A stretch of 64,000 nucleotides of DNA from NCBI GenBank assembly GCA_963748625.1, contig CAVVJT010000007.1:1152001-1216000 (forward strand), in the 5' to 3' direction. The DNA comes from an uncultured Chloroflexia bacterium (GTDB taxonomy: Bacteria; Chloroflexota; Limnocylindria; Limnocylindrales; CSP1-4). Positions 7,635 through 35,095 of the stretch are shown here, one piece after another (the first letter of the stretch is position 1; the number at the start of each line of letters is the position of its first letter). A program made the position numbers and the translations under genes. Below the pieces are notes generated by a model, which did no database searches, was not told where the DNA came from, and was given only the letters and a program-made list of their open reading frames with translations.

Positions 7635-8819
7635 TCAGCGGCGTCTCCCTCGTCGGGCGTTCTGCTTGCTTCGATTGGGTCTGATGGTCCCCTGGGCCGA
7701 GAGGTCCCGGTCGAGGGCTGCTGAGCGCTCCGCCGCGCTCTTGGCATCGCTGGAGTCCGTGAACTTGGGCTCCGGCATGGTGACGTGGTAGCGCGGCCGG
7801 TACTCCGCCGCGCGCCTGGGGTACCAGCCGAACAGCGGGAAGGTCCCGCCGAAGCCCACCACCAGGAACTGCTGGAAGACCTGGATCACGGACGAGAAGA
7901 TCCAGTAGAGGAAGAGGCCGGCCGGCAGCATGCCGCCGTAGATCAGCGAGATGAAGGGCAGGAAGTAGGCCATCTGCCGCTGCACCTTGACGTTGGGGTC
8001 ATCCGCGGTGCGGGGATCAAGCGGCGCGAGCGCCTGGCGCGAAGCGACCAGCTGCACGAGCGCCGACATGATCGCGAGGATGCTGATCCCGAACCCGAGG
8101 ATCGAGAGGCCCGTGGTCTGCGGCTCCGGGATGCTCCAGTTGATGCCGAAGGCCCACGGGTCGAGGCATGGGTTGATCACGTGTCCGGCGGCGTTGTAGA
8201 TGGGCGCCGCATCGCACGTGATGCCGAAGATCTCGGCGAAGTTGATGCCGAAGACCTGCAGCATCGGCGTGATGTCGTAGTTGCTCAGGCCCTGGCTGAT
8301 GACCGAGTACATCGGGATCAGGAGGCCCATCGTGAGCAGGGCGGGGAGGCAGCCGCCGGCCTGGTTGATGCCGCGCTGCTTGTAGAACTCCGACACCGCC
8401 TGCTGCGACTTGACCCGGTCGCCCTTGTACTTGGCCTGGATGGCCTTCACCTCGGGCAGGAGCAGCTGCGTCCTGCGCGTGGACACCAGCTGCTTGGTCG
8501 TGATGGGCGTGGTCAGCAGCTTGATGACGACGGTCAGCAGGATGATCGCGATCGCGATGTTCCCGGTCAACGTGTCGAAGCCCACCAGGACGATGAACAG
8601 CGTCTGGAAGACCGGCGTGAACAGCCACGCGATCGTGTCGATCGGGTTGGCGCCTGGGGTCGCCGGGGCCAGCGGCAGCTGCGGGGTGGGGGTGGGCGCC
8701 GGTGGCTGCGTGGCGCCGGGCGCGAGGGCCTGGCCGCAGGCCGAGACGACCAGCGCGATCACCAGCACGAACAGCAGGGGCGCCAGCCGGACCAGGGTTT
8801 CCTTGAGGCGGGTCGTCAC
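7635..8819 (-). CDS. yidC: Membrane protein insertase YidC/Oxa1 (lipoprotein-type N-terminus)
   Basis: AIILLTVVIKLL, PEVKAIQAKYK, GGCLP, PAGLFLYW; LVVSAC lipobox-like; synteny. Confidence 0.95.
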   Translation of the reverse strand: MTTRLKETLVRLAPLLFVLVIALVVSACGQALAPGATQPPAPTPTPQLPLAPATPGANPIDTIAWLFTPVFQTLFIVLVGFDTLTGNIAIAIILLTVVIKLLTTPITTKQLVSTRRTQLLLPEVKAIQAKYKGDRVKSQQAVSEFYKQRGINQAGGCLPALLTMGLLIPMYSVISQGLSNYDITPMLQVFGINFAEIFGITCDAAPIYNAAGHVINPCLDPWAFGINWSIPEPQTTGLSILGFGISILAIMSALVQLVASRQALAPLDPRTADDPNVKVQRQMAYFLPFISLIYGGMLPAGLFLYWIFSSVIQVFQQFLVVGFGGTFPLFGWYPRRAAEYRPRYHVTMPEPKFTDSSDAKSAAERSAALDRDLSAQGTIRPNRSKQNARRGRRR

Positions 8820-21305: not shown

Positions 21306-24300
21306 GTGACCGCTCTGGGTTCGGGTGTGCCCGACCGGGAGACGATTTCGGACGAAGCCCCCCGGCGAGGCCTCGGCCGTGACATCGTGGCCGTCCTCGC
21401 GATCGGCCTGCTGTTCCGGCTGATTCTGGCATATGGCATCCCGGGCCTGCGAGGCTCCGGGTTCGACACGGACTTGAACCTGTTCCGCTATTGGGCGGAC
21501 ACCCTGGCAACCCATGGTCCGTGGGGCTTCTACGCGAACGCATCGTACGCGGACTACACCCCGGGCTACCTCTACGCCTTGTGGCTCGTCGGGCTCGTCG
21601 GCCAGCTGTTCGGCGGCGTGGGCGACCTCATCAAGATCCCCGCGATCCTCACCGACATCGTGATGGGCTACCTCGTGTGGTCGATGGCGCTGGAGCTGGG
21701 CGTCACCCGCAAGCGCGCGGTGATCGCGGCGGCGATCGTCCTGTTCAATCCCGTGACCTGGTTCGACTCGGTCATCTGGGGCCAGGTGGACAGCTTCGGC
21801 ACGGTGTTCCTGCTGCTGGCGATCCGCGAGCTGTGGCGCGGCCGGAGCGAGCGGTCCGCCGTGTTCGCCGTGATGGCCGCGATCACCAAGCCGCAGCTGG
21901 CGATCCTGATCCCGATCGTGGCGCTGGTGGTGATCCGGCGCTCGCTGTGGCCGAAGGGCGCCTGGGGCGACGAGATCGCACCTCGGATCAGGGGCTTCGC
22001 GTGGGAGCGGAACCTCACCGGCTGGGTGCGCATCCTGACCACCGGCGTGGCCGGCTTCGTGACCGCTGTCCTGCTGGCCCTCCCGTTCGGCCTGACGGTC
22101 CTGGTCCCGACCACCACGGCCCCGTTCCTGGACTCCTCGCTGCTGCGGCTGATCCTGTCCACCGCCGGGGTCTACCCGTACCTCACGGTCAACGCCTACA
22201 ACATCTGGGCACTGTTTCCCGTGGACGGGGTGAGCATGGCCACGGGCGGTGGCTGGCTGTTCGACTCGGCGGCTCCTGATGCGACGGTCTGGGGCCAGAT
22301 CGGACCGCTGGCCGCCGCCACCGTGGGCGCCATCCTGCTGCTGGCGGTCGCGGGGCTGGTGGCCATCGCCGTGGCGCGCCGGCCCGACCGGCTCACGATC
22401 CTGGTTGGCACCTGCGTCATCGCCTTCGCGTTCTTCGCCGTCCCCACCAGGGTCCACGAGCGGTACCTGTTCCCCTTGTTCGGGATGGCCGGAATCCTCA
22501 TCGCCTTCTCCTGGCGCTGGCGGGTGGCGTACCTCGTGGCGTCGATCGCGACGTTCCTGAACATGTACGTGGTCCTGACCACGCTCTACGGCGACATGAA
22601 CCCCAACGTGTCGGACTGGCTGGGCATCGGGGAGTGGATCCGCTCGCCATTCGGCGTGACGGTGGTGGCCGTGCTCCACACGGCGGCGTTCCTGTGGGCG
22701 CTGGCACAGCTGCGGCCGAAGGCCCGTCGGACGCTCGCGGCCGAGCTGGCGACGGGCGGGATCGAGGAGCGGGTGCTCGACGCGGCAGAGGACGCGGCGC
22801 GCGCGCCGGTCCCGCATGCGCTGCCCGAGGGTGTGACGGTGACGGCGGGCTCGACCGTGGCGGGGGTGCCCGTGGCGGGCTCGCCCGTGGCGGCGGCTGC
22901 CCGTGGCAGGCGACCGCCGTGGCGGCAACCGCACCGGGCGCTCGCGCGGCAGGGCGGGCGGAGCCTCCGGCCCTCGTCCCGGCCTGGTACGACCGGCCCT
23001 CCTGGACGGTGCTCGGGCCGATCGCCTGGTTCCGCGCGCGCCTTGGTGAGACGCCGATCCGCCCGGACCGCTCGGCCGAGCTGGACCGGGAGCGGCACGG
23101 CCGGATCGACAGGCTCGACGTGTTCCTCGTCGTGCTCTTCGTGGTGGCCACGCTGCTCCTGCGCGGCTACCGCCTGGCCGAGCCCGCCCGGATGCATTTC
23201 GACGAGGTCTACCACGCCCGGACCGCCACCGAGTTCCTCCAGTTCTGGCGCTACGGGATCTCCCACAACATCTACGAGTGGACCCACCCGCACCTCGCGA
23301 AGTACGTGATGGCGGGCGGCATCGCCGCCTTCTCCGGTCACGACGTGGCGTCCTCGTCCAGCCTGGGGGTCAACGTCCGCGACGCGGTCGTGGAGCCTCG
23401 CCGCGACGATCCCACGGGGTCCGGCGCCCGCTCCGGCGACCGCGTCTGGGTGGCCACTGGATCCCAGCTGGTCGCCTACGACCTCGAGACCCGCGCGCTC
23501 GCCTGGCAGTTCGAGCTGCCGGGCGCCTCGGCGGTGGCGTTCGATGACGCCACACTGGAGCTCATGGTGGGCACCGACGGCGGGTCCGTCCTGACGCTGG
23601 ACACGACGCAGCTCGATGGGGCGACCGGTGACCCGGCCGTGCCGCCTGCGGAGCTGTTCCCTGTTGCCACGCTGGATGCCGCCGTCCACCGCCTGGCGCC
23701 CTTCGCCGACGGCGAGCATGCAGCGGCGCTGATCGCCGGCGACATGGTGGCGGTGGTGGACCTGGGCACGAGCGAGGTGACCGGGTCCACGGTGGTGGAG
23801 GGTGCCGCCGACCTGGTCCCGGTGAGCGGCATCGACGGGATCATCGTGCGCCCGTCCGAGGTCACGGATCCATCGACCGCCGCCGCCGAGCTCGTGGCCG
23901 CGTTGGGTGGCGTGATGGCGGACATTGAGGCGCAGCTCACCCGCACCGACGTCGAGATGCTGGTGCTGGACGCCGTGCTGTCCGACGACGGTCGTACCGC
24001 GCTCCAGGCCGCGATCGAGGAGGGCCGCCTGACCGGCGTGGAGATCGGGCCGGTGGGCACCGTGGCGGTCGCCGGGGCCGAGGGCATCACGATGGTGGCG
24101 GTCTCGGGCGGCATCACCGGCACCGTCGATCTCGACGGGCCGGCCAAGGGTCTCGCGCTGGTGGACGGCGTGGACGATGGGACCCAGCTGTATGCGACCA
24201 CCACCGCGGCCGACGGCACGCCGCAGGTCGCGGTCATCGCCGTGACCGGGGACTCGGCCGCCGACGGTCCCGTCACCACGAGCACGTTCGAACTGCCGGG

Positions 24301-26917
24301 CCCCGGGTCACGCGTGATCTTCGACGCGGCGGCCGAGATGGTCCACGTGCAGGGCGAGGCCCCCGAGGGCGACGGGCTGGTGGTCTACGTCGTGGAGCCG
24401 CACGGCAAGAGCGTCTTCGCCGATCACGACCTGCCCTTCACCCCGACGGCGGTGGCGCTCGACCACAACGCGCAGTTCCCCAGCTCCACGCGCGGTGCCC
24501 TGCTGGCCTTCTCGGCCGATGGCCAGGCCGCGAGCCTGGACATCGCGCAGTACGTGTTCGCCTGGCGCGTGCCCGGCGTCATCTTCGGGGCGCTCACCGC
24601 GGCGGTGATCTACCTGCTCACCCGGGTGCTCTTCCGGCGCCGCGACGTGGCCCTCCTCGCCGGGCTGTTCGTGCTCGTGGACGGGATGTTCTTCGTCCAG
24701 AGCCGCATCGCCATGAACGACGTCTACACGGGCTTCTTCATCCTGGCCGCGTACCTGGGCTTCGCCTGGCTCTACGTCACCCCAGAGCGGCCACGCTGGG
24801 CCTTCTGGGCCGTGCTGCCGGCGATCGGTGTGATGCTGGGCCTGGCGTTGGCCTCGAAGTGGGTGGCGGCATACGCGATCGGTGCGCTGGGGATCCTGTA
24901 CCTGATGCGGTCCGCGCTGGGCCGGCTGATCCTGATCGCCGGGATGGTGGCCGTCACCGCGGTCCTGGGCTGGATGGCGCTCGCCGTGCCCGAGGGGACC
25001 GACGGCGCCGGCAACCTGCCCTTCGTGCTGATCATGATCGGCCTGACCCTGGCCACGGTGGCGCTCACCGTCTACCGGCCGGTCGCCTGGTCCGACGACG
25101 AGGCGCGCTTCGCGTTCGTGGGACCCGCGGCCGTCGGCATCCTGGTCGCCCTGACCTCCATCGCGCTCGGCAAGGCCGACAGCTCGTTCGCGATCGGCCC
25201 ATTTGCGCTCACGCCACTGCTGCTGGGCTTCGGCCTGGTGGTGCTGGGGCTCGTGGCCTACGGGGCATTTGCGCTAGCCGCGCGGTTCGGCGTCGGTCCG
25301 TTCGCGCCGAACCACGACCGGCCCGGAGGGCCACCACCCGCCACCCCCGCGCCCGAGGGCTGGCTGCGCATGGGCTGGGGCCTGGGCTTTCCCGTGGTCT
25401 GGCTCGCAGCCTCGCTGCTGGTGCTGCCGATCGTCGTCTACGTGGCCCTCTACCTCCCGTGGGCGTTCATCGACAACCACCAGCTCGTCGAGGGCTGGCC
25501 CGTTGGCCACACCGGCCAGACGCTGGTCGAGCTGACCGGCGAGATGTACCGCTACCACAACAACCTCACCGCAGCGCACGCCGCCTCCTCGCCGTGGTGG
25601 GCGTGGCCGGCGAACCTCAAGCCGGTCTGGTTCTACCAGGGCAGCTTCGCGGGTGGCACGGCGGCCGCGATCTACGACGCGGGCAGCATCGTCCTGTGGT
25701 GGATGAGCATCCCTGCGATGGTCTTCGTGGCGTTCCAGGCGTACCGGCGCCGCAGCGTCGCGCTGGCGCTGATCGTGGTGGCGTTCCTGGCCCAGTGGGT
25801 GTCGTGGGCACGGATCGACCGGGCCGCGTTCCAGTACCACTACTACACGAGCCTGCCGTTCGTGATGATGGCCCTCGCCTACTTCGTGGCCGAGGTCTGG
25901 CACGGGGCATCACGCCGCACGTGGCTGCTGGCCCGGGTGGCCGCGGCAACGTCGCGTTGATGGGGCCGGTGATCATGTGGGTGCTGCGCTACCCGCTGTG
26001 CTCCATCGCCGGCGTGGAGTCGGTCAATGCGGGCTCCCAGGCCTGCAACGGGAACCCGGGCAACCTGGTGGTGACGCCGGCAACGGCCGGCCTCGTGGTG
26101 GTCATCGCGGTCACGCGTGATCGTGATGGTCAAGCTGCTCTACGACCTCGGGCGGCCGCGGGTGGGTGATCGTGCCCTGTCCGCGCGGGACCTGGCGCCG
26201 CTGCTGCTGACCGCGGCGATCGGCGTGGTGGCGCTGCTCATCTCGCGGGCGCTGCCGGATGAGGAGCCGCTGTTCTCCTTCAACGGCGTGATCCCGGAGG
26301 TCATCGCGCTGATCGCGGCCATCCCGCTTGGGCTGGTGGCCATCCAGGTCGCGACGGCACGCGATGCACGGCGGTTCGTGGCGGGCCTCGTGGCGACCGC
26401 GGTGATCTGGTTCGCGGTGCTCTACCCGAACATCTCGGCCCTGCCGCTGCCGTCCGCGGTGGTCAACGCCTACCAGGGCCTGCTGCCGACCTACCTGTAC
26501 GCCTTCCAGTTCAACGTGAACACGATCGACCGGAGCGGCGCGATCTCGTTCGCGGATCCGCGGTTCGCGATCCTGCTGGTCGTGCTGGTGGTGGCGGCCG
26601 CGGTGGTGGCCTACTCGGCGTGGGCGTGGCGCCAGGCGCTGGCCGAGCCGGTTGACGATGGCCCAGGCGAGGACGGGCCCGTAACAGGCGACGGCGCGGG
26701 CGGCGGTGCGGGCGGCGAGCGCGATGGCGGGCCCGTGGGCGAGGCCCGGAGCGGCGTAGGGCCGAGGGCGTCGCCCTCGCTGGCGTGGGTGCGGGTTGGC
26801 TCCAGGCTCAACGGCAGCGGCAGCGGCTGGCCGACGCGCGGCGACGGCGGCACCGGTGCGTGGAAGTGCGGCGGCAGCTGGCCAGCCGCCGCAAGCCTCC
26901 GGATGACGAAGCCGTAG
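21306..26917 (+). CDS. Giant GT-C fusion: GT87/ALG6-like domain plus PMT/ArnT-like domain with inserted propeller-like region; three apparent frameshifts, 3' end uncertain (about 26760-26917)
   Basis: ADYTPGYLY, DSVIWGQVDS, RVHERYLFP (domain 1); HFDEVYHAR, EWTHPHLAK, QSRIAMND, ASKW, HAASSPWWAWP, FQYHY (PMT-like); joins at about 22900, 25950 and 26115; AGGAGG RBS and TATACT -10. Confidence 0.8.
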
Positions 26918-28006
26918 TAGTCGTCCACCTTGGCGGTCACGCGCGGCCAGGAGAACTCCTCGGCGCGCACGATGCCGTTCTGCCGCATCCGCTCCGCCAT
27001 CGCCTTGTCGCGCAGCAGCGTGCCGATCGCCTCGGCGATCGCGTCGCTGTCCTTCGGCGGGACCAGCAGCGCCTCGCGGCCGCGCCGGACGACGCCCTTG
27101 TAGCCGTGGATGTCGGACGCCACGATCGGGCGCTCCGGCTGCCATCGCCTCGAGCAGCACGATGCCGAACGACTCGCGTCCCGTGGCGGGGGTCACGTAG
27201 ACGTCGCAGGTGCGGAAGAGCTGGTTGCGCTCGTCATCCGACACGCGGCCCAGGAAGTGCACGCCCTGGAGGCGGCGGGTGGCGACGTAGCGACGCGCCT
27301 CGCGCTCCTGGGGGCCGCCGCCCACGAGCAGGAGGCGCGACGTCCTCGCACGCCCGACTTGCGCAGGGTGCCGATACCCCTTGAGCAGGTCCAGCACGCC
27401 CTTGCGGGGCTCGAAGCGGCCGACGAACAGGATGTTCCGTGTTCCGTCCTGCCAGCGGGTCAACGGCACGGCGCGCTGGAACCGGGTGGGGTCCACGCCG
27501 TTGGGGATGACCTTGTAGTCACCGGGGAAGTAGCGGTCGATGAAATGGCGGGCCGCCGCGCTCACCGCGATGCGGCCGTGCAGGCGCTCCGCGTAGCGGC
27601 GCATCGCCCATTTGCCGAACTCGTACGCCGGTGACCAGCCGCCATACGCATGGAACGTGCCGATGTTGACCGACTGGCTCTCCTGGAGCACGACGAGCGA
27701 GAGGAACGGCACGAAGGGCTCGTGGAAGTGGAGGACGTCGAAGCGCTCCTCATCGAGGAGGGCACGGGCCTGGGAGATGTAGCGCGGCGACAGGGTGATC
27801 GTCCCGACCGAGCCGTTGGCCGGCATCGAGAAGCCCTTGCCGAGCCGGATGACGTCGCCCTCGGATGAGCGCTGGAGGCCGTGCGACGACGAGATGATCC
27901 GGACGTCGTGGCCGCGGAGGCGCAGGTTCTCGTAGAGGAACCGGACGTGCTGGGTCACCCCGCCGGGGAGCGGGTAGACGTACGGGGAGACCAGCCCGAT
28001 CTTCAC
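26611..28006 (-). CDS. pimA: Phosphatidylinositol alpha-mannosyltransferase PimA-like (GT4); frameshift at about 27130, 3' end uncertain
   Basis: KIGLVSPYVYPLPGGVTQHV, FDVLHFHEP, GRIAVS, IPNGVD, GRFEPRKG, ESFGIVLLEAMAAG, ASDIHGY parallel mycobacterial PimA motifs. Confidence 0.85.
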
Positions 28007-28865
28007 CCGGCCGACTCGTCGTGCAGGCGCTCGTCGTGCAGGCGGCGGGCCAGGTCGCGGTCGAACACGGCCGGGCGCTGCATGCCCCCGGGATAGCCGA
28101 GATCCCGGCCGGTGCTGTCGCGCCGGACGAACCCGGTCGCCGTGGCCCGCCAGCCCCGGGCGTACTTCGCCAACTGCCCGCCGTAGACCCCGAGCTGCTC
28201 GAACGACCCGTGGAAGCCGCCGTGGCTGGTCGTGGTGCCAGCGGTGATGGCGGCCCGCACATCGTCCGGGCGTGCGCCCCGGGAACGTCGTCCAGCACGC
28301 TGCCGATCGCAGCGAGCGCGTGCGCGTCGCTGTTGCCGACGGCGGGCAGGCCCACCTCATCGGCGAACCGGACAACCGCATCGTGGCGGTACTTGCCCAG
28401 CGCCGTGGGATTCCAGGTCTCGAGCGCGTCGGGGTGCACGGAAGGATTGTCGTCGTTCAGGAGGCGCCGGATCGCGCTTCCCTGCGCGCACATGGGGAAC
28501 GGCACGAGCGGGTGGGCGGGGATGGCGAGGCCACCCTGGTCGTGGATGGCCTCGATCGACCAGCGCAGGCTCTTCATGGACGGGACCGGCCGCTCCAGGA
28601 AGAGGGCGAGCAGGTGTCCGCCACGGGTGCTGACCTCCTCGCCCACGATCACCTGGACCCGCAGGCCCTGGTCCTGCGCCATCTGGCGGGCGGCCAGGCC
28701 GGAGTCCACCCGCTCGTGGTCGGCGATCGCGATCACGTCCAGGACACCCTCGGCCTCCACGTGGTCGAGCACGGCCTGGACCGGCGCCGTCCCGTCCGAA
28801 GCCCAGGTGTGGATGTGCAGGTCGGCGCGGCCCCGGCGGACGGTCGGGTCGAGGTGCTCGCTCAC
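28003..28865 (-). CDS. PHP-family metal-dependent phosphoesterase; frameshift at about 28285
   Basis: DLHIHTWASDG, IADHE, GEEVST.GGHLL, PAHP, GNSDAH. Confidence 0.88.
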
Positions 28866-29896
28866 TCGGCCTCCCGCCTGGAACCGGCCTCATCGCTGGG
28901 GCCGGCCTCGCCCGCGGAACCCACGACCAGGTCGGGCCAGATCGGGTGGAAGGCACCCCACCACTGCTCGGGCGCATCGGCGAGGATCGTCTCGAACTCC
29001 TCGGTGATCCTCCGCGTCAGCTCCATGACGCGCTCCCGGCGCGTCCCCTCGACCGGGGTGGGCACCAGCCAGAGCTTGCCGCCGTACCGGCCGTGCTTGA
29101 GGCGTCGCGCGCTGCCGACGTAGACCGGCGCACCCCCTTCGATGGCGAGCAGGGCGGGCGCCGGCGACATGGGGGCGTCGTGGCCGAAGAACGGCATCGG
29201 CATGCCCGTCCCCGTGAGATCACGATCGCCGACCATGCCGATCGACCGGCCCTCCTTGAGCGCACGGATCAGGGGACGGCGGGCGTCCTTGAGCGGGATG
29301 ACGTTCACGCCCACCCGACTGCGGCTCTCGACGAACCACCGCTGGAGCGCCGGGTCGGCGACGGTCTCCATGGGCGCCGTCACGTGGTGTCCGAGCTGCT
29401 GGGAGATGTACACGACCGGCATCTCGATGGCCCCGAAGTGCATTCCGATGATCACGATCGGCCGCCCGGACTGGAGCGCCTCGCGGACGTCGTCGGGCGT
29501 CTCCACGTCCATCCTCGCGAGGCTGGAGGCTGCGTCGTACGCGCCAGTTCGCGCCACCTCGAGGTAGTAGCGGGTCGCATGACGGAAGCAGGCCCTGACC
29601 AGCCGCTCGAGCGCCTCGGGGTCCGTGGCAGCGCGCCGGGCGCGGGCAGGTCCCCGCCCCTGGGCGGCGAGGCCCTCGCACACGCGCCGCAGGTTGGCAC
29701 GCGCCTGGGCAGCCTTGTCCGGCGCGATGCGGTACCAGAGCTCGCCGACGGACTCGGCCGCCGCCACCAGCGGCGCCTCCGGGAGTGCTGCGAGCACGCG
29801 GGCGCCGCCCAACAGGAGCATCGCGCGGAACGAGCGCCCGGGTGCGCGGCCCGCGAGCGGTGAACCCGTCCCGTCAGAGCCCGCCGCGACGCTCAC
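28862..29896 (-). CDS. PatA/LpxL-family acyltransferase (paralog 2)
   Basis: HFGAIE (HxxxxE), GDRDLTGTGMPMPFFG, APEQWW; GTGA overlap with the upstream gene. Confidence 0.85.
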   Translation of the reverse strand: MSVAAGSDGTGSPLAGRAPGRSFRAMLLLGGARVLAALPEAPLVAAAESVGELWYRIAPDKAAQARANLRRVCEGLAAQGRGPARARRAATDPEALERLVRACFRHATRYYLEVARTGAYDAASSLARMDVETPDDVREALQSGRPIVIIGMHFGAIEMPVVYISQQLGHHVTAPMETVADPALQRWFVESRSRVGVNVIPLKDARRPLIRALKEGRSIGMVGDRDLTGTGMPMPFFGHDAPMSPAPALLAIEGGAPVYVGSARRLKHGRYGGKLWLVPTPVEGTRRERVMELTRRITEEFETILADAPEQWWGAFHPIWPDLVVGSAGEAGPSDEAGSRREAE

Positions 29897-30972
29897 GTCG
29901 ATGCGCCGCCCCCGCCCCCGGCGCCCTCGGACGCAGCAGCGGCCGGTCGCGCCGCGCCCCCGGCGCCCTCGGGCGCAGAAGCGGCAGACAGCGCTACGCC
30001 CTCCAGCATCGCCGCCGCGCGCCGCTCGAGCTCGGCTGCTTCGGCCGGATCGTCCGGCCAGATCGGCTTGAAGCTGTACCACTGCTCCGGCGCCGCCCGG
30101 ACCGCCATCTCCAGGAAGTCCGCGATGCGCTGCGTGGCACGCTGGAGCGTCGCCGGGTCGCTCGCGTCCACGCTGAACATGCCGTGGCTCACGACGTGGA
30201 ACTTGCCCTCGGGCGTGCGGCGGATCGCGAGCGGTGCGATCAGGGCCCCCGTCTTGGCGGCAAGCGTGGCCGGACCGGCCGGCAGGGTCGTCCAGGCGTC
30301 GAAGACCTTCACTGGAATCCCGTCGGGCCGGTAGCCCCAGTCAACCACGAGGGCCACGATCTCCTTCCTGCGCAGCACAGTGAACAGCTCGCGCAGGTTC
30401 CGCCAGGGGATGACGTGGACGCCGAAGGACTCGCGCTCCTCGCGCAGGATCTCGAAGATCTCCGGGTAGGCCGAGTCGTCCGCGACCACGTTGGCCGGTA
30501 CGCCGCGGTGCGCGATGGCGGCGGCCACGGCCTCGTTGTTGCCGATGTGCCCGGCGACCACGATCACCGGGCGCCCGCTGGATGCCCAAGTGTCCAGGAT
30601 CTCGTCCATACCAGTGCCGACGAGCGCTGCGGCCCGCTCCGACTCCGGTCGAGACGGCAGGCGCATGAGCTCCACGATGTAGGACGCGTACGCCTTGTAG
30701 GCGCGCAGGGCCAGCCGGTGCACGCGCGGGTGGTTCGGCGGCAGGTGCAGGACGTGCGCGAAGTTGGCGCTGGAGAAGCGCCGCTTCGCCGGCCAGGCGA
30801 GATACGAGAGCTGCGACACGCCCGCGATCGCCGCCCGCGAGATGGCGGGCGGCACGAACCGCAGGACGGCAGCCGTCGTGCGATAGCCGACGACCGCCGT
30901 CTTCTCGACGATCCGCGGAGGGGTGTCCTCGAGGCGCCGGTGGGGCGCCTCGAGCTTGCGCTTCTGGGTCAC
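29893..30972 (-). CDS. PatA/LpxL-family acyltransferase (paralog 1)
   Basis: [32 protein letters not shown]. Confidence 0.85.
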
Positions 30973-32160
30973 TCGGTGGCGGTTGCCCGGCTCCCTGCTT
31001 CGGTGGCCAGCGCCTTGGCGTCCTTGCGGGACTCCTCGGTGCCGGTGAGCGTCTCGTTGTCCTCGCCCCGGATGAAGGCCTCGACCCGCTCGCGGGCCAC
31101 GTCGTCGTGGACCTGGAGCGGCGGACTCTTCATGAAGTAGGACGAGGGTGCCACGAGGGTACCCGACAGGCCGCGATCAAGCCCGATCTTGAGGCACCGG
31201 ATGGCGTCGATGATGACGCCCGCGCTGTTGGGGCTGTCCCAGACCTCGAGCTTGAGCTCGGCCTTGAGCGGCACGTCGCCGAAGGTGGTGCCCTCCATGA
31301 CGATGTGGCAGTACTTGCGGTCCTTGAGCCACGGCACGTAGTCCGACGGGCCGACATGGACGTTGTCCGGGTCCATGTCGTAGTCGAGCATGGAGGTGAC
31401 AGCGTTGGTCTTGGAGATCTTCTTGGACTCCAGGCGCTCGCGCTCGAGCATGTTCATGAAGTCCGTGTTGCCGCCGAAGTTGAGCTGGTACGTGCGGTCG
31501 AGGCGCACGCCGCGGTCCATGAACAGGCGGGTCATCACGCGGTGCGTGATGGTCGCGCCCACCTGGCTCTTGATGTCGTCACCGATGACCGGCAGGCCGG
31601 CGGCGGCGAAGCGGCGCTGCCAGTACGGCTCACGGCCGATGAACACGGGGATCGCGTTCACGAAGCCGACGCCCGCCTGGATCGCCTGCTCGGCGTACCA
31701 CTTGGTCGCCTCCTCGCTGCCGACCGGGCAGGTAGGAGACCATCACGTCCACCTTGCGGTCGCGCAGGATGCCGATCACGTCGGCCGTGGGGCCGGGCGC
31801 GGGCTCGATCACCTGGGACAGGTACTTGCCCAGACCGTCGTGGGTCATGCCGCGATCCACGGTCACGCCCATGTGGGGCACGTCCATGAACTTGATGGTG
31901 TTGTTCTGGCCGGCGTAGATGGCCTCGGACAGGTCACGGCCGACCTTGGTCTTGTCGACGTCGAAGGCCGCAACGAAGTCGATGTCCGAGATGTGGTACT
32001 CGCCGAGCTGGACGTGCATCAGGCCCGGCACCGAGTCGGTGGGCTTGGCGTTCTCGTAGTAGTAGCGGCCCTGGATGAGGCTGCTGGCGCAGTTGCCGAC
32101 GCCGACGACGGCAACGCGAACCTTGCGCCCCTTGCCGGGGGCGCGATCGGTCGTGCTCAT
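30969..32160 (-). CDS. ino1: myo-inositol-1-phosphate synthase; one-base frameshift at about 31727
   Basis: [57 protein letters not shown]; removing one C restores [13 protein letters not shown]. Confidence 0.95.
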
Positions 32161-32181
32161 GGGTACTCCGCGAGGGCAGGA

Positions 32182-32811
32182 TCAGCCCTGTTGCTGGGCC
32201 GCCTGCTTGAGGGTCACGACGACGCGCTGCACGGTGGTGATCGCGGCGAGCACCGCGATCAGGCCGAGGGTGAACCCGAGGATGCCGATGTTCACGCCGG
32301 CGAGGCAGACGCCGATGGTGAGGATCACGAGACGGACCTCGCGGGGGGCGAGGCCCACGGCGGCCATGCCGGTACCCGGGGCGAACCCCAGGCTCTCAGC
32401 ACGGGCGCGGGTGTAGCTGACCATGAAGGCCATCGACATCGCTGCGGCCGACAGGATCGCGCCGATGTCGTAGCCGGCGAAGAGGCACCCGGCCGTGAGG
32501 CCGATGTACACGACGCCCTCGCCCCACCGGTCGAAGGTGGAGTCCATGAAGGCGCCGGCTTTGGAGGTGGAGTTGGTGGCGCGGGCGACCATCCCGTCGA
32601 ACATGTCGAAGATGCCGCCGAAGATGATCAGCAGGCCGGCCGGAAGCCAGGCCTGCAAGCCTGCGACGACGGCAGCCACGACGGCGATGCCGAAGCCGAT
32701 GATCGTGATCGCGTTGGGGGAGAGGCCCAGGCGGACGAACAGCCGTCCGATGGGCTCTGCCAGGGCGCGGACCTTGGCCCGCATGTCGGGCGAGACGAAC
32801 GAGCCGCTCAC
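32182..32811 (-). CDS. pgsA: CDP-alcohol phosphatidyltransferase, phosphatidylinositol-phosphate synthase-like
   Basis: SPNAIT, DMFDGMVAR...GAFMDSTFDR, VSYTRARAESLG, TTVQR; adjacent to ino1. Confidence 0.88.
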   Translation of the reverse strand: MSGSFVSPDMRAKVRALAEPIGRLFVRLGLSPNAITIIGFGIAVVAAVVAGLQAWLPAGLLIIFGGIFDMFDGMVARATNSTSKAGAFMDSTFDRWGEGVVYIGLTAGCLFAGYDIGAILSAAAMSMAFMVSYTRARAESLGFAPGTGMAAVGLAPREVRLVILTIGVCLAGVNIGILGFTLGLIAVLAAITTVQRVVVTLKQAAQQQG

Positions 32812-33173
32812 GATGCGTCCTCCGCCGTTCCCCGGCCGCTCGGTTCCAGCCCTAGCGCCCGTGCCTGCCGGGTGGCGAACATCGTGAAGGCCTCCGTCTC
32901 GAGGGAATGGATCGTCTCCCGGCCGTTCCGTCGCGCGGAGACCAGCCCGACCTCACGCAGTTTAGAGAGATGCCAGGAGACGAGGGGCTGCGAAAGGCCG
33001 ACCTGGTCGACGAGCTCGGTGACCGTGGCCGGATGATCCGCAAGCACCCGGATGATCCGCAGCCGGTTGACGTCGGCCAGCACCTTGTGGACACGTCGCA
33101 GCTCGCGCAGGTCGTCGGGCTGGACGACGGCTGCGGCGAGCGTGCTCCGGATCCGTGCGGGTGTGGGGGACAT
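32808..33173 (-). CDS. ArsR/SmtB-family transcriptional regulator
   Basis: KVLADVNRLRII, LSQPLVSWHLSKLREVGLV, RRNGR. Confidence 0.92.
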   Translation of the reverse strand: MSPTPARIRSTLAAAVVQPDDLRELRRVHKVLADVNRLRIIRVLADHPATVTELVDQVGLSQPLVSWHLSKLREVGLVSARRNGRETIHSLETEAFTMFATRQARALGLEPSGRGTAEDAS

Positions 33174-33217
33174 CGAACGACCGGTTCCTCCGGGAGCGTC
33201 GACACCGCCGTGGTACT

Positions 33218-33277
33218 CATCAACGACGGTTTATATCAACGGTCGTTGATGCTAGGCGCGCGGCGTGGACCTGTCAA
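33218..33277 (-). promoter_or_regulatory. Promoter and double ArsR-type operator of the inositol-lipid operon
   Basis: TTGACA-17 nt-TAGCAT; 34-bp near-palindrome 33218-33251 made of two ATCAAC-N4-GTT(G/T)AT units over the -10 and start site. Confidence 0.8.
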
Positions 33278-33355
33278 CCCCCTCTGACGCGCTTGTCGTG
33301 AATGGCTCTCCCGCCTCTGGAACGGCTCGCGGTGGATGCGCCCTACACTCGCGCG

Positions 33356-35095
33356 GTGGATCGACTCTCGCGGCGTGACTCGCTCGTCCTGCTCGGCGTC
33401 CTGGGGACCGGGGTGTTCCTGGCCGGCCTGGAGCTGATGATCACGGCCGTCGCGCTGCCGGCCATCGTGACGGACCTCGCGGACTGGACCCGCCTGCGCG
33501 AGGCGTCCTGGATCATCAACGGCTACCTGCTGGTCTATGTCGTGACGATGCCCCTTGCCGGCCGTCTCGCCGACCTGTGGGGCAACCGCCGGCTGTTCCT
33601 GGCGGCGCTGGTCATCTTCACCGCGGGCTCGCTGCTGGCAGGCGCCGCCCAGTCACTCGAGCAGCTCATCGTGGCCCGCCTTGTCCAGGCGGTGGGCGGT
33701 GGCGCCCTGGTACCCGTGGCCACGTCGGCAGCGTCCCACCTCTTCCCCGGCGCCGCGCGGCCGCGGGCCCTGGGCGTCATCGCCTCGCTGACCTTCCTGG
33801 GCATGGCGGCGGGTCCGTTCCTGGGGGCCGCGATCCTGGGCGCGCTCAACCCGGCGGCTGCCCTCTCGCGCATCGGTGCGGACCCGGGCACCCCGCTCGC
33901 TGCGCTCCTCGCCCCCGCCTGGCGCTGGGTGTTCTACGTCAACGTGCCAGTCGGGATCGTCGCGCTGGTGATCGCGTGGGCCGCCAGCTCGGACTGGGAG
34001 ACACCACGGCGGCAGGGTCGCGTCGATGTCGTCGGCGCGCTGCTGTTCTCGGCGTTCCTGGTGGGCATGCTCGGGGCACTCACGCTCCTGGGCAGCCGTG
34101 CCGGCCCGGACGGCGGGCTCGATCCGCAGACGGTGTCGCTGGTGCTTGCCGGGGTGGCCGTCGTGGGGCTCGTGGTCACGATCGGGCGCGGGTTGCGTGT
34201 CCCTGACCCATTCCTGGACCCGCGCCTGTTCCGCTCGCTGCCGTTCTCGTCGGCAGCGCTGGTGTCGCTGCTCACGGGATACGGGCTCGCGACCGCGATC
34301 GTGGGGGCGGCGGTCTTCGTGGACCGCGTCCTGTACGGCGGACCGGACGAGCAGCGCATCGCCCTGGGTGCGCTGGCCGGCGCGACGGCCGTCGGCGCCC
34401 TGGTGTCGGGGTTCGCGGTCCGCGTGCTCTCACTGCGCCTGGTGACGCTCGCGGGTCTGGTCGCGTCGGTCGCCGCCCTGTGGTGGATGGCCGGCTGGAC
34501 GCCCGCCACGTCGGTGGAGCAGGCAGCGCTGGCGCTGGCGGTCTTCGGCTTCGGCTTCGGCATCACCGTCACGCCCCGATCCACCGCCGCGGTCGAGGCG
34601 GTGGCCCCGAGCGCCTACGGCATCGCGTCATCCACGGTCACCGTGGCACGCATGGTCGGGATGGCCGTCGGCCTCGCGATCCTGACCGCCTACGGATCCA
34701 CGACCATCGACCGCCTCTACGACCAGGTCTACGCGTCACCGGACGCGTACAAGCAGTTCGTTCCGGACAGCCTCACCGACCGTCCGCTCAAGGACGGCCA
34801 GGTGGTCGAGGCGCTCGAGCAGTGGGCGGCAGGCGAGGCGGCCCGGATCATGGTCGGCATCTTCATGGTGGCGGCCGTCGTGACCGCCGTGGCCATCCCG
34901 CCCGCGCTGTTGCTCGACCGCCGGAAGCGTATGCTCGGCGACGCCGGGAGCGACCCGGTGCCAACGGGAGCCCCCAAGGCCGATGCCGGATCCCAGCCAG
35001 CCGACGCCGCACCCCAGCCAGCCGACGCCGCACCCCAGCCAGCCGACGCCGCACCCCAGCCAGCCGACACCGCACCCCAGCCAGCCGACGCCTGA
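33356..35095 (+). CDS. MFS transporter, DHA2/EmrB-like
   Basis: WIINGYLL, GRLADLWGNRR, ARLVQAVGGG, WRWVFYVNVPVG, DPFLDPRLF; GTG 6 nt after TACACT. Confidence 0.9.
   Translation: MDRLSRRDSLVLLGVLGTGVFLAGLELMITAVALPAIVTDLADWTRLREASWIINGYLLVYVVTMPLAGRLADLWGNRRLFLAALVIFTAGSLLAGAAQSLEQLIVARLVQAVGGGALVPVATSAASHLFPGAARPRALGVIASLTFLGMAAGPFLGAAILGALNPAAALSRIGADPGTPLAALLAPAWRWVFYVNVPVGIVALVIAWAASSDWETPRRQGRVDVVGALLFSAFLVGMLGALTLLGSRAGPDGGLDPQTVSLVLAGVAVVGLVVTIGRGLRVPDPFLDPRLFRSLPFSSAALVSLLTGYGLATAIVGAAVFVDRVLYGGPDEQRIALGALAGATAVGALVSGFAVRVLSLRLVTLAGLVASVAALWWMAGWTPATSVEQAALALAVFGFGFGITVTPRSTAAVEAVAPSAYGIASSTVTVARMVGMAVGLAILTAYGSTTIDRLYDQVYASPDAYKQFVPDSLTDRPLKDGQVVEALEQWAAGEAARIMVGIFMVAAVVTAVAIPPALLLDRRKRMLGDAGSDPVPTGAPKADAGSQPADAAPQPADAAPQPADAAPQPADTAPQPADA
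34992..35092. repeat. 21-bp tandem repeat, about 4.8 copies
   Basis: CCCAGCCAGCCGACGCCGCAC units; encodes PQPADAA in the MFS C-terminus. Confidence 0.92.

Follow-up and report, generated by a model that had tools for sequence, protein, structure and literature searches.

In mycobacteria, the enzyme that converts phosphatidylinositol phosphate (PIP) to phosphatidylinositol (PI) was "a yet-unidentified phosphatase" in 2019 (PMC6506517) and still "as-yet unidentified" in July 2026 (bioRxiv 10.64898/2026.07.15.738315). The step falls just before the mannosyltransferase PimA in the synthesis of phosphatidylinositol mannosides (PIMs). A preliminary description of the DNA discussed here had called the mycobacterial phosphatase unassigned, and the two sources agree. 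That DNA is a 64,000-nucleotide stretch from an uncultured Chloroflexia bacterium (GenBank assembly GCA_963748625.1, contig CAVVJT010000007.1, positions 1,152,001 to 1,216,000), which we call the window. At 28003..28865 on its minus strand lies a gene for a PHP-family phosphoesterase, embedded in an operon for PIM-type lipids. The context evidence is strong and comes from several independent sides: a conserved gene order, a rearranged order that keeps the linkage, gene fusion and co-occurrence in a group where the pathway is patchy together show that the enzyme belongs to inositol-lipid synthesis. On balance, we are inclined to see its product as the PIP phosphatase that feeds PimA, a substrate and a reaction suggested by the company the gene keeps.

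Bacteroides already has an assigned enzyme for this step, the PgpA-like protein BT_1525 of B. thetaiotaomicron ("PIPPh"), and the proof is genetic: its deletion leads to accumulation of PIP-DAG, according to PMC9246714, where the word PHP does not occur. The parallels with our gene are several. The reaction, PIP to PI, is the one we propose for the PHP enzyme, the assignment was partly based on context, and BT_1525 is likewise clustered with PIP synthase and myo-inositol-phosphate synthase. The proteins, however, are unrelated in fold and family (PgpA, PF04608, against PHP). For mycobacteria, the 2026 preprint offers a candidate in EphE (Rv3670 family), predicted to bind PimA through the Rv2609c-like ML0451c (bioRxiv 10.64898/2026.07.15.738315). 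EphE is put forward for the same step, and its proposed physical association with PimA has a counterpart in the way PHP adjoins PimA or is fused to it, as described below; unlike PHP it is an alpha/beta-hydrolase, is unlinked to the pgsA-patA-pimA operon and is backed by mutant lipid profiles. The actinobacterial operon pgsA1-patA-pimA-Rv2609c, as the 2026 preprint presents it, likewise groups a PIP synthase (PIPS), a Lip_A_acyltrans acyltransferase and PimA. The operon in the window, which belongs to a different phylum, adds ino1, a second acyltransferase, an ArsR-type regulator and the PHP gene, and in the present annotation has no Nudix/LemA gene. A full-text literature search, covering sources other than subscription journals and supplements, found nothing that links a PHP protein to PIP dephosphorylation.

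The operon is a seven-gene unit on the minus strand, running from about 33173 to 26611 in the order ArsR-PIPS-ino1-acyltransferase-acyltransferase-PHP-pimA; the G+C content of the window is about 71%. PIPS (32182..32811; CDP-alcohol phosphatidyltransferase, PF01066, 3.6e-13) has the PIP synthases 5d92/5d91, 6h53 and 6wm5 as its closest solved structures. The myo-inositol-1-phosphate synthase gene, ino1 (30969..32160), stands in two frames in the assembly, its C-terminal piece matching PF01658 at 7.6e-37. Two Lip_A_acyltrans acyltransferases (PF03279) follow. The first, PatA/HtrB-like, lies at 29893..30972 (3.3e-31); the second was listed as an open reading frame (ORF) at 28862..30082 (6.9e-36), but since the family match sets in only at residue 87, the true start is likely to be near 29890-29820. 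At the far end, the gene for a PimA-like GT4 mannosyltransferase (26611..28006) is also in two frames, with a break at about 27123-27125. For its intact orthologue at locus L010, a relative that serves as our reference below, the solved structures of PimA (4n9w/2gej) match at 1e-60 and those of the next-best family at 1e-19. PIPS, PimA and a PatA-like acyltransferase encoded together mark this as a PIM gene cluster, and the PHP gene is the only hydrolase in the operon. It is tied to both neighbors by the same four letters, GTGA, which at 28865-28862 contain both its own start and the stop of the upstream acyltransferase gene, and at 28006-28003 both its own stop and the GTG with which the pimA-like gene begins.

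From these parts, an assembly line can be proposed. PIPS would join CDP-diacylglycerol and the inositol phosphate made by Ino1 to give PIP. The PHP gene, as a dedicated part of the PIM operon, would supply a metallophosphoesterase of the PHP superfamily, about 287 residues long and either soluble or peripheral. With a metal cluster bound by His, Asp and Glu, this enzyme would hydrolyze the headgroup phosphomonoester of PIP to leave PI. The translationally coupled PimA would then mannosylate PI, and the two PatA-like acyltransferases would acylate the product. We prefer PIP as the substrate because its dephosphorylation, the only step of the pathway that lacks an enzyme and one that comes just before PimA, fits both the position of the gene and the partner to which its relatives are fused. 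There is also support by elimination: PgpA (PF04608) has no match in the PHP protein and none genome-wide at E<=0.01, in a search whose control was positive in 5/14 genomes including B. thetaiotaomicron, and no PAP2 phosphatase was found in the source genome, which is 98.3% complete.

The linkage of PHP to PIP synthase and pimA, which the preliminary description made the touchstone of its proposal, holds widely across Chloroflexota and in a second phylum, and is reinforced by fusions to PimA-like domains. (The Chloroflexota tallies that follow include six unpublished genomes, and the Actinomycetota tally one.) We collected 65 loci through PHP peptide patterns, 42 of them from the window's own group. 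In that group, the second acyltransferase and/or PimA flanks PHP in all 42 loci, as far as the contigs extend, and the complete series from PIPS to PimA is present in 25/42; nine distant PHP relatives in the same sample have no linkage. Outside the window's class, 13 of the 20 best PHP matches, from 16 families, directly adjoin PimA and/or PIPS, and the arrangement acyltransferase-PHP-PimA-PIPS occurs in at least 18 families. In family f24, PHP stays with the acyltransferase, PimA and PIPS (L114) while ino1 is elsewhere in the genome (L092). An unbiased sample, centered on ino1, took about 9 kb around the gene in 40 Chloroflexota genomes from 38 families: ino1 is accompanied by PimA and PIPS at 22/40 loci, by PIPS only at 2/40 and stands alone at 16/40, and PHP lies inside the cluster at seven of the 22 loci that have all three.

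At two loci from another phylum (L042 and L043), the order is changed and the genes are still linked, as PIPS-ino1-acyltransferase-PimA-acyltransferase-PHP. In the phylum-level group to which these loci belong, 99 genomes were searched for both genes. With PHP counted as present at E<=1e-25, 42 have both PHP and ino1 and 35 have neither. The genomes are related to one another and the table is therefore descriptive rather than a statistical test. Among the top-scoring PHPs (E<=1e-72), 21/21 genomes have ino1, and in 20 of these the two genes share a contig and are no more than about 4 kb apart. In a middle tier (E about 1e-54 to 1e-59), a paralogue, 20/22 genomes have ino1; the lowest full-length tier (E about 1e-46 to 1e-49) is made up of six genomes, and ino1 is missing from all of them.

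At all 12 loci from Solirubrobacterales/Thermoleophilia, PHP adjoins a GT4 gene, and 10 of them also carry PIPS and ino1. In Solirubrobacterales, PHP stands C-terminal to a PimA-like GT4, directly after PIPS-ino1, and the two form one ORF in L049, L050, L053, L057 and L059. GT4 and PHP Pfam domains occur together in all 120 of the best listed protein clusters (from three independent annotation sources, NCBI, ENA and JGI). Among solved structures, PimA comes closest to the glycosyltransferase part of the fusion, matching along its full length at 2.6e-18; the next follows at 3.6e-6. The fusions, represented by proteins P0128-P0199 and by ORFs of L049, L050, L053 and L057 that end at about 8702-8762, come in two length classes, one of about 630-650 residues with a full GT-B fold and one of about 490-530 residues with the N-terminal GT4 domain only. 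The N-terminal GT4 domain of PimA is the acceptor-side domain. The short class is without the mannosyl donor domain, so its glycosyltransferase half may be non-catalytic. An AF2 model of a PimA-like::PHP fusion (pLDDT 61.3, pTM 0.55, from 27 low-diversity rows) was too poor to speak of domain packing, and complex predictions for separate PimA and PHP from L010-centered alignments scored 0.00 twice, with no control runs, and count neither for nor against binding. Some apparent fusions elsewhere were set aside as indel read-through. The singletons joining acyltransferase to PHP (P0121-P0124) and PHP to GT4 (P0125, P0126 and P0151) come from Limnocylindria-like records and are collinear with the operon or cut off, on one contig each. 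A singleton joining ino1 to PHP (P0175) likewise rests on one contig, its record sharing 36% identity with L010, and includes a GT4 stretch as well.

The protein itself is a PHP-superfamily member by its Pfam matches (PF02811 and PF13263, both over their gathering cut-offs), its ligand set and the barrel fold of an orthologue model. Scored on the unbroken N-terminal 198 residues, PHP_C reaches 31.2 bits (cut-off 21.3), and PHP passes barely, at 26.9 against 26.4. The metal ligands, in L010 numbering, are HxH 15/17, D22, H48, E74, H82, H116 and D178/H180; all nine expected positions are present within those 198 residues, bearing out the earlier statement that the ligands are intact. Over an alignment of 22 rows (20 homologues and the two pieces of the window protein), they are nearly invariant, the Solirubrobacterales clade having E in place of H82. 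The AF2 model of the L010 orthologue, which is 72% identical to the window protein, has a pLDDT of 88.3 and is a distorted (beta/alpha)7 barrel followed by a long C-terminal helix and a basic tail. The net charge of the tail is +2 to +12 in 19 of the 20 full-length homologues and 0 in L059; it is at most a weak hint of membrane binding.

Searched with Foldseek, the model finds PHP proteins in all of its top 13 matches (among them 3e38, 2anu, the PHP core of RNase AM and PsfC). The closest folds, TM0559 (2anu) and BVU_3505 (3e38), at E of 1e-11 to 1e-10 and TM scores of 0.71-0.73 normalized to 2anu, share the compact PHP+PHP_C architecture at about 20% identity and are structural-genomics proteins without an assigned function. 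By sequence, the best solved matches, at 6.7e-20 to 4.5e-11, are RNase AM/YciV (7ug9 and 9etk) and Cv1693 (2yb1), which have the same barrel and HxH/DH/E/H/H/DxH ligands but carry an insertion of their own of about 80 residues, set between the two stretches that match, and occupy a different genomic context; the insertion of 9etk/7ug9 (chain residues of about 86-168) has no counterpart in the PHP profile. Two named functions were tried and rejected. Against the RNase AM/RNase RNM equivalog (NF047791), L010 scores 50.8 bits where the cut-off is 375, the match being limited to the first 80 or so residues, and against the 3',5'-nucleoside bisphosphate (pAp) phosphatase equivalog (NF041577, Cv1693 type) it scores 31.3 bits where the cut-off is 400. 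The CehA/McbA metallohydrolase domain model (NF038032, cut-off 80) places L010 (58.7) and L043 (73.3) below its threshold and is passed by the fusion protein L049 (82.1) and by the out-of-cluster paralogues L119 (87.1) and L116 (91.8).

Several observations weigh against a PIP phosphatase. Fifteen of the 22 ino1-PimA-PIPS loci in the unbiased sample have no PHP inside the cluster, one of them with a type-2 PHP (see below) 4.8 kb away, and seven of the 20 best matches outside the class are close paralogues without an inositol context. Family f51 has the cluster (L082), yet its six sampled genomes reach just E of about 1e-11 to 1e-14. In the second phylum, nine genomes have PHP without ino1 and 13 have ino1 without PHP; the middle-tier PHP loci that were fetched (6/6) lie outside any PIM context; and four ino1 loci from PHP-less genomes all read ino1-PIPS, sometimes with an acyltransferase, and hold neither PimA nor PHP. 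PHP tracks PimA more closely than it tracks PIPS, adjoining it or being fused to it with a single exception (L124). In-cluster and out-of-cluster PHPs are told apart by no clade-specific signature residues save one Gly, and the basic tail is only moderately amphipathic, not clearly above the protein core in a hydrophobic-moment scan. Dephosphorylation of inositol compounds could also fall to three IMPase-family genes located elsewhere in the genome. Finally, a sample of 301 Actinomycetota genomes includes 227 in which PHP has no match at E<=1e-15.

With PHP missing from 15/22 Chloroflexota clusters and from those 227 genomes, the protein cannot be the general or the mycobacterial PIP phosphatase, and since most Actinomycetota are without it, the mycobacterial question stays unsolved by PHP. 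Any extension of the proposal to mycobacteria therefore falls; the mycobacterial operon of the 2026 preprint has no PHP gene, and EphE is the enzyme proposed there. What stands of the preliminary description's "natural candidate" is that PHP is the only hydrolase of its operon and that the linkage is kept; set against that are the many clusters without it and an activity that context alone suggests. Simple co-occurrence within Chloroflexota says little either way because both genes are near universal there: PHP homologues (E<=1e-10) occur in 390/401 genomes and ino1 in 365/401. As a separate observation, six complete genomes of about 6 Mb from one genus of family f31 (G048, G060, G099, G144, G189 and G223) have ino1 and no PHP at E<=1e-10.

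A quick maximum-likelihood tree, in which 10 of the 42 own-group loci were kept against redundancy, divides the PHPs into two starred (99) groups. All in-cluster PHPs belong to type 1, where they form three starred sub-clades beside separate starred or well-supported clades of out-of-cluster paralogues; genome G026 has one type-1 PHP of each kind. Because the backbone of type 1 is unresolved, the tree neither shows nor excludes that the in-cluster PHPs arose only once. In type 2 are the Solirubrobacterales fusions, a pair of Chloroflexota PHPs located 5-6 kb from ino1 clusters (L073 and L096) and the best PHPs of G105, G168, G177 and G100, genomes whose PIM cluster holds no PHP. A wider proposal would make both clades lipid-headgroup phosphatases that were recruited to inositol-lipid synthesis and dephosphorylate PIP in a PIPS-PHP-PimA assembly line, whether in Chloroflexota, the phylum of L042/L043 or Thermoleophilia. 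This we regard as possible and advance only tentatively. In it, the N-terminal GT4 half of the short fusions may be a PI(P)- and membrane-binding module, and the out-of-cluster Chloroflexota paralogues, which are almost universal, could act as phosphatases on further phospholipid headgroups (PGP, for example) where a genome has neither PgpA nor PAP2.

The strongest rival to PIP as the substrate takes its cue from PimA. Here, the enzyme would be a PimA-associated phosphoesterase acting on something else: GDP or GDP-mannose, mannosyl-PIP after mannosylation or another phosphorylated lipid or nucleotide by-product. Hydrolysis of GDP or GDP-mannose would resemble a role discussed for the Nudix gene that neighbors mycobacterial pimA. 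The PHP gene does always adjoin PimA or join a PimA-like domain in one protein, apart from L124; PIPS clusters that lack PimA also lack PHP (L084, L087 and the 4/4 second-phylum loci); and the nearest characterized PHPs act on nucleotides or RNA (RNase AM, 9etk and 7ug9; 2yb1). Yet our protein scores far under the cut-offs of the nucleotide-enzyme equivalogs and has no insertion domain, and a mini-cluster at L124:8279-11341 (genome G147) pairs PHP with PIPS in the absence of PimA. That mini-cluster reads ArsR-PHP-174-aa ORF-PIPS, beside a Mutator-family transposase, and has no acyltransferases. Nor is any PIM step known to need GDP hydrolysis, while the PIP step lacks an enzyme (PMC6506517; bioRxiv 10.64898/2026.07.15.738315). 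We think this alternative rather unlikely.

Linkage to ino1 could instead point to a soluble inositol-monophosphate phosphatase, making free inositol or trimming inositol phosphate in the manner of IMPase or the PHP-type histidinol-phosphate phosphatases. PHP enzymes do include small-molecule phosphomonoesterases, and histidinol phosphatases are among the weak matches of our protein. But since PIPS-type enzymes use inositol phosphate and not inositol (PMC6506517), its hydrolysis within the same operon would be counter-productive, and the genome already has its three IMPase-family genes elsewhere. In f24, moreover, PHP keeps to the acyltransferase, PimA and PIPS with ino1 located apart, and the fusion partner is a lipid-acting PimA-like domain, the sole listed ino1+PHP protein, P0175, looking like read-through. 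To this explanation we would give only a small chance.

A slimmer chance still attaches to a housekeeping PHP phosphoesterase, unrelated to inositol lipids and merely travelling in the operon. Its homologues are indeed found in nearly all Chloroflexota genomes, some of them without ino1, and paralogue clades occupy other contexts. A passenger is hard to square with a place beside PimA that persists in 21 or more Chloroflexota families, under another gene order in a second phylum and through fusion in a third, or with translational coupling through overlapping codons; the in-cluster PHPs, too, fall in starred clades apart from the out-of-cluster ones.

There is one complication in the gene itself. 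The preliminary description presented 28003..28865 as a gene with a start and a stop that overlap its neighbors; the PHP coding region and both GTGA overlaps are real, but no single frame is open throughout. From 28865, the ORF goes on in the wrong frame to 27750, so that the PHP start and stop are in different frames, and the conserved reading crosses three, from "..AAIGS" through "CWTTFPGRTP" to "DDVRAAI..", by two +1 shifts. The extra single bases lie at about 28296-28304 and about 28267-28271, and a DNA alignment shows neither of them in any of 8 relatives. A 167-letter public contig spans window positions 28256-28424 (169 bases) with one mismatch and two gaps, which is to say with two bases fewer, and a neighboring 264-letter contig from the same public run is identical to the window; this comparison uses two contigs of one run, shares being <=0.24 and no run spanning the whole gene. 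In three of three genomes of the same genus, the PHP profile match is unbroken (positions 3 or 4 to 266, with no stops). Across the 17 kb compared, four or more genes are hit by a total of at least five frame switches (at about 22950, 27125 in pimA, 28270, 28300 and 31700-31750 in ino1), suggesting a high indel error rate in the assembly, and the genome's single PHP paralogue (contig C8:108892-109636) is broken likewise. From the shorter public contig, the unbroken same-genus matches, the breaks in ino1, pimA and another gene and the broken paralogue, we read the frame breaks as most likely assembly errors, in which case the organism probably makes an intact PHP protein. Although the assembled sequence carries both extra bases and the sole paralogue is damaged too, a pseudogene with two real insertions is very improbable, for besides the shorter public contig the 88 codons downstream are open and 67% identical to L010, the breaks in ino1 and pimA form a pattern that points to long-read consensus errors, and four loci from other assemblies with the same record-name prefix (L030, L031, L041 and L048) show the same fragmentation. 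The source genome has a reported contamination of 7.74%, a figure that split genes may inflate.

The operon opens with a gene for an ArsR-family HTH regulator (32808..33173, minus strand; HTH_5, 7.5e-15), whose stop overlaps the start of PIPS by 4 nt. With tblastn, it gives 43 matches in 42 loci, 5' of PIPS or ino1. L124 and loci from other Chloroflexota families are among them, which makes the protein a candidate dedicated regulator of inositol-lipid synthesis. Upstream, 5' of the operon at 33249..33277 on the minus strand, is a promoter-like site, TTGACA-17-TAGCAT, that is a consensus match only; it is the single sigma-70-like match in 26000-33400, where shuffled sequence gives a mean of 0.2, and the seven-gene unit has no terminator-like site within it. 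Convergent to the end of the operon, at 22634-25960 on the plus strand, is a gene for an 1108-residue protein O-mannosyltransferase-like protein (PMT, PMT_4TMC and PMT_2), a neighbor that may hint at a wider mannose-based envelope locus.

The PHP gene is real and probably intact in the organism, and it gives a known superfamily a new functional candidate. If its product is the PIP phosphatase, then a step whose enzyme is known only from Bacteroides, where it is PgpA-like, would have a second and non-homologous enzyme of the PHP type, and, were both PHP clades to act in this way, bacteria would have at least three unrelated folds for PIP dephosphorylation: PgpA-like, PHP and perhaps EphE. The same role would provide a function for many PHP proteins now called "hypothetical" (among 30 Atlas matches, none of the four nearest cluster sets shown carries a name) and would explain the abundant GT4-PHP fusions of soil Solirubrobacterales. 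A literature search for papers that combine at least three of Chloroflexi, phosphatidylinositol, PimA and inositol-phosphate synthase found none. For Chloroflexota, a phylum with a poorly understood envelope, ino1 and its lipid cluster are nearly universal, and PIM-type lipids may prove to be a general trait of the phylum.

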